From a virus, in the IMG/VR virus record IMGVR_UViG_3300013132_000021: 64,000 bases of DNA, one strand, 5' to 3'. The position numbers and the translations under genes were made by a program. The notes under the pieces were generated by a model that ran no database searches, was not told the origin of the DNA, and saw only the letters and a program-made list of their open reading frames with translations. Positions 14,352 to 14,719 of the stretch are shown here, piece by piece. Numbering within the stretch: the first letter of the stretch is position 1; each line of letters begins with the position of its first letter.

Positions 14352-14719
14352 GTTAGCATTATCCAGATTGTTCAGCCACACTTCGCCCGTTGCCGGGCGA
14401 TGATAGTACATTATCCGAGTTGACAAGCACACAATAGCGTTATGGCATTACAGAGGCGGTCATCCGGTACCTCGAGCCACGTCTTCATATGACGGCGGTT
14501 TACTAAAATACGCTAACACTTTAGTAAACGTAGGGTTTTTCTCCCTTCCTTTTACCCTTACAATACTTTTCAAACAACTAAATCGCAGGTTTTAAGCGAT
14601 CCTCATCCATAAATGGGTAGTAGTTGAGTACCACTGCGGCATGGAATTCCGTCCCTGCGACCACGATTGACCAGGTTTAGAGCGCACGAATTTAGGCCTG
14701 CGCTAGCCAAAAACCGCTG
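14352..14719 (-). ncRNA. Candidate large structured non-coding RNA (~370 nt), family not recognised
   Basis: No ORF in the track; at least seven stems with G-U pairs and a GCAA tetraloop that only work on the minus strand; two possible pseudoknots. Confidence 0.65.

Follow-up and report, generated by a model that had tools for sequence, protein, structure and literature searches.

The window analysed here is the whole 64,000-nucleotide (nt) stretch of DNA in IMG/VR record IMGVR_UViG_3300013132_000021, and all positions below are those of this window. A gap of 500 nt between a gene for a GIY-YIG protein of 144 amino acids (aa) and an open reading frame (ORF) of 495 aa, to which no family was assigned, was found to hold a conserved structured RNA that is read on the minus strand. 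Rad50-like and Mre11-like genes lie upstream of this locus and mark the virus as T4-like, and the genome that hosts the RNA is that of an uncultured T4-like freshwater phage. We found that the RNA is the full-length, extended and uncatalogued form of the orphan Rfam motif Polynucleobacter-1, and that its covariation model comprises 19 helices.

Extent of the RNA and its homologs

The program cmscan was used to compare the locus with Rfam families. It revealed that Polynucleobacter-1 (RF01718) matches 14708-14572 over model positions 1-141 of 141, with a score of 99.9 bits (E-value of 2e-20) against a gathering score of 37 bits. The same family scored 77-121 bits in all 15 other tested loci with a full 5' domain. 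Polynucleobacter-1 was reported as a candidate motif of unknown function from Burkholderiales and fresh water (Weinberg et al. 2010, Genome Biol 11:R31, PMC2864571). The catalogued part accounts for only the first 141 nt of the RNA, and the Rfam model begins downstream of the 5' strand of the pseudoknot PK0 described below. A blastn search with the region against a phage GenBank collection gave no match.

A search with the downstream protein yielded 40 viral loci, and nhmmer, which was then run on the gap, revealed that the entire gap, beyond the Rfam part, is conserved upstream of the 495-aa gene. A pattern derived from the invariant centre of the RNA gave at least 120 further viral stretches; a near-full-length homolog is present in about 150 IMG/VR loci. 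The phage relatives are IMG/VR contigs, and further carriers were freshwater or riverine metatranscriptomes. The alignment used for the structural analysis, A2, comprised the window and 95 non-redundant full-length copies (<97% identity; n = 96). Conservation and covarying hairpins run on through P12, P13, an A-rich tract, P14/P15 and P16, the last of which (14272-14255) is terminator-like, 98.8% paired and shows five compensatory pairs. The RNA thus has a length of about 390 nt up to the P13 hairpin and about 470 nt up to P16, its last conserved hairpin. In four of the loci (L038, L022, L026 and L035), an insert of about 900 nt separates the RNA from the 495-aa gene.

Covariation-supported fold and pseudoknots

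A structure-blind mutual-information (MI) scan of A2 recovered every helix as well as three crossing pairings, PK0, PK2 and PK3. The 19-helix model contains 94 pairs, and 92.9% of its cells were paired in the 96 homologs, compared with 77.4% in shuffles and 35-46% in slid controls. Compensatory changes on both sides were present in 70 of the 94 pairs, and on each of five measures all 500 shuffles stayed below the observed value. G.U wobbles were frequent (e.g. a pair count of UG24 in PK2) and fit the minus-strand transcript only, which indicates that the structure belongs to that transcript. An original prediction, made from the window alone, had argued for a folded tertiary structure rather than a chain of terminators. 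The 19-helix model and the three covarying long-range pseudoknots bear this out, and the terminator scan flagged P13 as the sole terminator-like hairpin.

That prediction was built on four 6-nt words of the minus strand, CAACUA (14626-14621), UAGUUG (14580-14575), UAGCGU (14515-14510) and ACGCUA (14440-14435), all of which are present at these positions, with UAGCGU in the loop of a 12-13-bp hairpin (14529-14498). Within this one sequence, hexamer complementarities of this kind can be put down to chance: 45 Watson-Crick 6-mer complement pairs were counted in the 473-nt RNA versus 27.2 +/- 6.9 in shuffles, and a perfect complement of the loop hexamer occurs somewhere in the 246 nt downstream in 6% of shuffles. 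When compensatory changes were looked for in the homolog alignment, as had been suggested, both hexamer pairings proved to be conserved and covarying.

The pairing of UAGCGU with ACGCUA is a genuine H-type pseudoknot (PK2), 97.9% paired in A2 and with compensatory changes in seven of seven pairs. It extends to 7 bp (14516-14510 with 14434-14440), with pair counts such as UA80/GC13, GC71/AU23, CG82/UA14, GC87/AU9 and UA39/AU36. Switches from one Watson-Crick pair to another were counted on a tree, which for PK2 was built without the PK2 columns, and about 63 such switches were found. As for its topology, G14517 alone joins P8 to the knot helix, no linker returns to P8, and the third loop is a 57-nt structured insert formed by P10 and P11. 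Both GGUACCGGAUGACCGCC, the core of the P10/P11 unit, and the motif AAGAC are invariant in all 96 sequences; P10 is 100% paired, and a P11 column pair (322/362) shows counts of GC38, CG29, UA22 and AU5.

Two additional pseudoknots were revealed. PK0 joins GCGGU to GCCGC in the P3 loop and is 98.1% paired, with about 35 Watson-Crick switches and counts of GC42, AU22, UA18 and CG7 at its first pair. PK3 joins GUCA.U to AUGAC and is 97.4% paired, with about 43 switches and counts of CG54/UA42, GC54/AU38 and UA60/GC13. We are therefore confident that the 5' domain is closed by P4 and clamped by PK0 and that the central domain is locked by the interlaced PK2 and PK3; this confidence applies to the structural part of our explanation, which was observed, and not to its mechanism.

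The other proposed pairing, between CAACUA and UAGUUG, is a real helix (89.6% paired, compensatory changes in four of six pairs, about 54 switches), but it is the nested closing helix P4 and not a pseudoknot. Its description as a pseudoknot had depended on a 9-bp stem enclosing CAACUA, in which GGUCGCAGG (14662-14654) is perfectly complementary to CCUGCGAUU (14589-14581). This stem is not conserved across the family. It is 66.5% paired, all nine pairs are kept in only 10 of the 96 sequences, between 15 and 53 sequences are unpaired at each position, four of the nine pairs vary on one side only, and the tree shows about 112 flips from paired to unpaired versus 11 Watson-Crick switches. Its two strands compete with the hairpins P2 and P6, both of which covary and belong to the Rfam consensus. 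With P2 and P6 in place of the unconserved stem, CAACUA/UAGUUG is nested, exactly as in the RF01718 consensus, where it forms the outer closing helix around two hairpins (CC..GG and GAUCGC..GCGAUU) and where the 5' half of the 9-bp stem sits in a local hairpin (CUGGUC..GUCGCAG).

The 9-bp stem might nevertheless form and be crossed by CAACUA/UAGUUG as a real pseudoknot, if only as a switch conformer in this phage clade. The stem is perfect in the window and belongs to the nested minimum free energy structure of the 5' domain (-41.1 kcal/mol versus -36.5 kcal/mol with the conserved helices enforced and without PK0), which explains why the original prediction picked it. Across the family, its pairing lies above the slid controls, and a further 11 of the 96 sequences keep eight of the nine pairs. 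Given its one-sided variation, the excess of pair-breaking flips and the compensatory changes in the rival hairpins P2 and P6, we consider a pseudoknot across this stem extremely unlikely. The features of the locus are collected in Table 1.

Table 1. Features of the RNA and its flanks, with positions in the window and the observations on which each is based.
Feature	Position	Strand	Basis or remark
GIY-YIG (SegE-type) gene, 144 aa	14720..15154	-	Pfam PF19835 (SegE_GIY-YIG), E 3e-36; directly upstream of the RNA
Whole conserved structured RNA	14250..14717	-	nhmmer conservation, 19-helix covariation model, G.U wobbles
5' domain (P1-P6), RF01718	14572..14708	-	cmscan, 99.9 bits
PK0 5' strand GCGGU	14713..14717	-	follows the GIY stop codon immediately; outside the Rfam model, on its 5' side
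P1 hairpin	14682..14703	-	96% paired, both-side changes in 5/5 pairs
P2 hairpin	14655..14674	-	82.5% paired, 6/6 pairs changed on both sides; in Rfam consensus; 3' strand is half of the 9-bp stem
P3 hairpin	14630..14646	-	82% paired; in Rfam consensus; 8-nt loop holds the PK0 3' strand
PK0 3' strand GCCGC	14636..14640	-	inside the 8-nt loop of P3
P4 5' strand CAACUA	14621..14626	-	'((((((' helix of RF01718; pairs with 14580-14575
P5 short hairpin	14604..14620	-	closing pair, columns 136/152: CG83, GC13, 100% paired
P6 hairpin GAUCGC...GCGAUU	14581..14601	-	91.5% paired, compensatory changes in 4 pairs; 3' strand supplies the other half of the 9-bp stem
P4 3' strand UAGUUG	14575..14580	-	RF01718 consensus, covariation
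P7 hairpin GGG(A/G)-AGAAAAA-CCC(U/C)	14532..14546	-	covariation model
P8, the 12-13-bp hairpin	14498..14529	-	94.4% paired, 12/12 pairs compensatory; loop forms PK2
PK2 5' strand, loop UUAGCGU	14510..14516	-	covariation, tree events; 7 of 8 P8 loop nt paired
PK3 5' strand GUCA.U	14489..14493	-	pairs with 14463-14459
P11 around P10 (P10, 14453-14473)	14442..14480	-	invariant core GGUACCGGAUGACCGCC
PK3 3' strand AUGAC	14459..14463	-	apical loop of P10
PK2 3' strand ACGCUAU	14434..14440	-	directly 3' of P11; seventh pair here is a U.U mismatch
Twin word copy 1, GGAUAAU in box AACUC-word	14410..14416	-	locus comparison
P12 hairpin	14381..14402	-	88% paired; between the twin boxes
Twin word copy 2, GGAUAAU in box AAUCU-word	14358..14364	-	locus comparison, MI scan
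P13 UUCG hairpin, terminator-like	14335..14351	-	terminator scan; sole hairpin flagged
Terminal hairpins P14/P15 (GAGCG..AGCGA) and P16	14255..14296	-	module common to bacterial copies
Conserved AUAAAUAA	14241..14248	-	after P16, before the 495-aa ORF; columns conserved in alignments A1 and A2

Two further pairings were considered and rejected. A long-range CCC/GGG pairing predicted by RNAalifold (columns 139-141/429-431) was without covariation and clashed with P12, and a local GUC/GAC hairpin with apical CGG/CCG pairs in P10 was compatible with the model but invariant, its covariation being explained by PK3. We also observed a non-canonical covariation between 14617 and 14605 in P5 (A2 columns 139/151; U.C in 52 versus C.U in 44 sequences), which goes together with the choice between two P5 loop types, UUAACA and GAAA, and may represent a structured internal-loop motif.

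The twin-word tail and the bacterial copies

The tail of the RNA contains two boxes, 52 nt apart, on either side of P12, and each box carries the same 7-nt word. Both copies were identical in all 145 of 145 loci, in which 11 word variants were found, and at least 27 changes of the word were counted on the RNA tree, each of them shared by the two boxes. In the closest pair of loci with different words (L141/L045), the contigs have only the RNA in common. These twin words suggest a sequence-specific partner. All phage word variants read NNA followed by UAA or UGA, and the bacterial boxes differ; a reading of the words as stop codons or as a translational bypass was rejected, as the bacterial boxes are without a stop and no ORF crosses the region. 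Two more same-sense copies of the box-like decamer YYYGGAUAAU are present on the minus strand of the window (25346-25355 and 44291-44300), which makes four copies in all versus 1.3 expected; the two extra copies are at chance level.

We found the same tail behind an unrelated head. In the L007 locus (2187-2990; also in L011 and L015), an 86-aa ORF comes after the GIY gene; beyond it, about 310 nt of unrelated non-coding sequence lead up to the twin-box tail with the terminal hairpins. RF01718 was not present in this type of locus. The tail is thus a separable module. In a GIY clade of 72-77% identity (L213, L216, L221, L223, L232 and L259), only the tail was recognisable, and it carried a new word, ACAUGAA, twice. 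RF01718 was absent downstream of the GIY gene in all 20 tail-only or no-match loci tested. Looking for 9-mer repeats behind distant GIY genes, without a preset pattern, was uninformative.

The RNA is also present in bacteria. RF01718 scored above its cut-off in 16 of 141 Polynucleobacter genomes, several of these matches being on closed chromosomes. The bacterial RNAs are about 520-560 nt long and keep the 5' domain and the terminal module around a different centre. They form PK0 with an entirely different sequence (CUACUG/CAGUAG) and keep the matching-word rule with other words (AUCA, AGCG, AGAG and AACA). The GIY gene is absent next to these copies. Their RNA adjoins a divergent DUF6641 gene (PF20346; phrog_31551) in L173, L174, L176-L178, L180 and L181, and a tyrosine recombinase of about 190 aa stands beside or just downstream of it in two of these seven loci (L177 and L181). 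Judged from this gene content, the setting of the bacterial RNA appears mobile-element-like; no homologs of DUF6641 or of the integrase were found in the phage window and loci. Five apparently cellular matches of the phage-type centre were short contigs of metagenome-assembled genomes that carry phage genes.

Recombination partners and iterons typically have identical short cores at two sites, and such cores, together with the recombinase in two bacterial loci, would be expected if the tail acted as DNA, as an origin-like or recombination-site element. We regard this explanation as quite improbable. The tail hairpins keep their pairing through G.U wobbles of the transcribed strand only (e.g. 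CG60 and UG30 at P12 columns 413/436), no inverted arm repeats were found around the words, the 52-bp spacing is too short for excision, and no recombinase was found in the phage loci.

Neighbouring genes and candidate roles

In 117 of 132 loci, the gene directly upstream of the RNA is a GIY-YIG gene of the same strand, and at least the tail is present downstream in 46 of 54 loci that were selected by their GIY gene. The protein is only 144 aa long, without an extra DNA-binding domain, and the words behave like a programmable element, so that the RNA could be pictured as the guide or scaffold of this minimal nuclease, with programmable twin words as in a HEARO/IscB-like system. The two partners show no sign of the co-evolution that such a system would entail. 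Pairwise GIY identity and RNA identity were correlated with only r = 0.29; GIY proteins that are 97.9% identical accompany RNAs that are 52.6% identical and carry different words, and RNAs that are 82% identical accompany GIY proteins that are 60% identical. Similarly, the GIY identity to the window protein was bimodal (48-60% versus 84-94%) and discordant with RNA similarity. The GIY gene and the RNA are evolutionarily uncoupled, which, together with the bacterial copies that are without a GIY gene, argues against a GIY guide RNA. Adding the absence of RF01718 from the 20 GIY loci mentioned above and the failure to find a word-complementary target in the loci, the 64-kb window, the 280-kb relative G001 or the bacterial loci, we consider a guide role very unlikely. 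The RNA resembles the HEARO/IscB omega-RNA of the same 2010 survey in being a large structured RNA beside a small nuclease ORF in mobile DNA, and differs from it in that co-evolution with the nuclease and guide-target complementarity were not found and in that the RNA also occurs without a nuclease. It follows as a caution that a nuclease-adjacent RNA need not be a guide RNA.

T4 contains free-standing seg-type GIY-YIG homing endonuclease genes, such as segB in the tRNA gene cluster. Here too, a small GIY-YIG gene stands beside a conserved RNA gene and has a phylogeny that is discordant with that of its neighbour, and the locus fits an autonomous RNA gene whose neighbour, a seg-like endonuclease gene, reassorts. 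There were some differences from T4: the gene keeps a fixed position and occurs in about 89% of loci, it is without the C-terminal DNA-binding domain of characterised Seg proteins, and homing is putative for it. The best PHROG match of the GIY protein, phrog_447, is labelled 'NAD synthetase' and looks mis-annotated; a PDB sequence search with the protein gave no match.

On the other side of the RNA, terminator-like hairpins stand before the next ORF, and Weinberg et al. (2010) scored the motif as possibly cis-regulatory, both of which would suit a 5' leader, i.e. a riboswitch or attenuator, of the downstream gene. This is very improbable in our view, as the gene order is fixed upstream but the 495-aa gene follows the RNA in only 41 of 112 loci, and as the genes downstream of the bacterial copies vary. 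In addition, the RNA is separated from the 495-aa ORF by the conserved AUAAAUAA, which we take to resemble the T4-type late promoter TATAAATA.

The knotted head might also be a ribozyme, self-cleaving or otherwise catalytic. It contains several pseudoknots, its core is invariant (GGUACCGGAUGACCGCC and AAGAC), and its size and ornateness are typical of catalytic RNAs. However, no covariance-model (CM) match to group I or group II introns, to known self-cleaving ribozymes or to any other Rfam ribozyme or intron family was found at gathering or even permissive thresholds, and the central domain is swapped for unrelated sequence in the bacterial and L007-type copies while the tail is kept. A catalytic head is therefore unlikely.

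For the function of the RNA, we infer a mechanism in which a rigid knotted head is combined with two identical words that are shown to a reader. The pseudoknots would hold the RNA as a rigid head. The tail would consist of two unpaired boxes flanking P12, followed by terminator-like hairpins, and would present one 7-nt word twice to a sequence-specific partner encoded outside the RNA. The RNA itself would arise by co-transcription with the upstream GIY-YIG message, or by processing of that message, without serving as the guide of that nuclease. On this basis, we tentatively propose, as its most likely role, that of an autonomous recognition or decoy RNA and not of a GIY guide. A bolder version, which seems rather doubtful to us, is that the knotted head and the twin-word tail form a new programmable RNA of phages and bacterial mobile elements. 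In that case, the words would act as a specificity element, recognised through base pairing to a nucleic acid or by another partner, the head would be catalytic or protein-recruiting, and the phage, bacterial and L007 heads would be interchangeable effector modules.

Several points weigh against the proposed structure and mechanism. Event counts made on one tree may be inflated by phage recombination, P2, P3 and the variable tail are imperfectly aligned by MAFFT, and the 9-bp stem is thermodynamically competitive in this phage, which leaves a small chance of a clade-specific alternative conformer. A scan found no sigma-70-like promoter ahead of the RNA, which makes co-transcription with the GIY-YIG gene probable. 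The metatranscriptome evidence consists of assembled contigs of relatives and attests presence only, not ends, strand or accumulation. These contigs (four libraries) cover the GIY ORF and 14414-14710, one of them bridging both, and do not reach 14226-14413 or the 495-aa gene; as they come from relatives and are without ends or strand, this gap in coverage is not evidence for a 3' end. No partner of the words was found by the MI scan within the RNA or among reverse complements within +/-10 kb in each locus, and no complementary partner was found in the 64-kb window, the 280-kb relative G001 or the bacterial loci. A sequence-specific reader of the words is consequently hypothetical.

We compared the RNA with other orphan RNAs. 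Its similarity to Polynucleobacter-1 is the closest and includes the full 141-position match, P1-P6 with CAACUA/UAGUUG and the freshwater habitat. It differs in that the catalogued motif covers no more than the first third of the RNA and is without the PK0 5' strand, the double-pseudoknot centre, the twin-box tail and the terminal hairpins; in addition, the RNA described here lies in a T4-like phage behind a GIY-YIG gene. GOLLD and ROOL likewise have hundreds of nucleotides, several pseudoknots, a phage, prophage or mobile-genetic-element context and an unknown biochemical role, but they show no sequence or CM similarity to this RNA, which is smaller. To our knowledge, the twin-word tail has no described counterpart in GOLLD or ROOL. 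The central domain weakly resembles cow-rumen-2 (RF02947), with a UUAGC hairpin loop, GCCGyCA and GGAUGACC in a hairpin; identity with that family was rejected, as the score was 21.7 bits against a gathering score of 66 (E-value of 0.15 in a 651-nt search) and no match was found in 17 other loci.

With these results, a 141-nt orphan Rfam motif becomes a triply knotted RNA of about 470 nt with a wide distribution in uncultured freshwater T4-like phages and with further copies in Polynucleobacter mobile elements. The fold around the originally predicted pairings is corrected, and the covariation-backed structure with three pseudoknots can be used for probing, cryo-electron microscopy and an Rfam update. 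The evolution of two identical 7-nt words in step is a rare signature, and it makes the function experimentally approachable. Elsewhere in the window, we observed a match to the Rfam freshwater-2 RNA (RF02980) at 441-517 on the minus strand. Its score of 52.4 bits is barely over the gathering score of 49.9, and this match is a second orphan environmental RNA motif within the same phage window.

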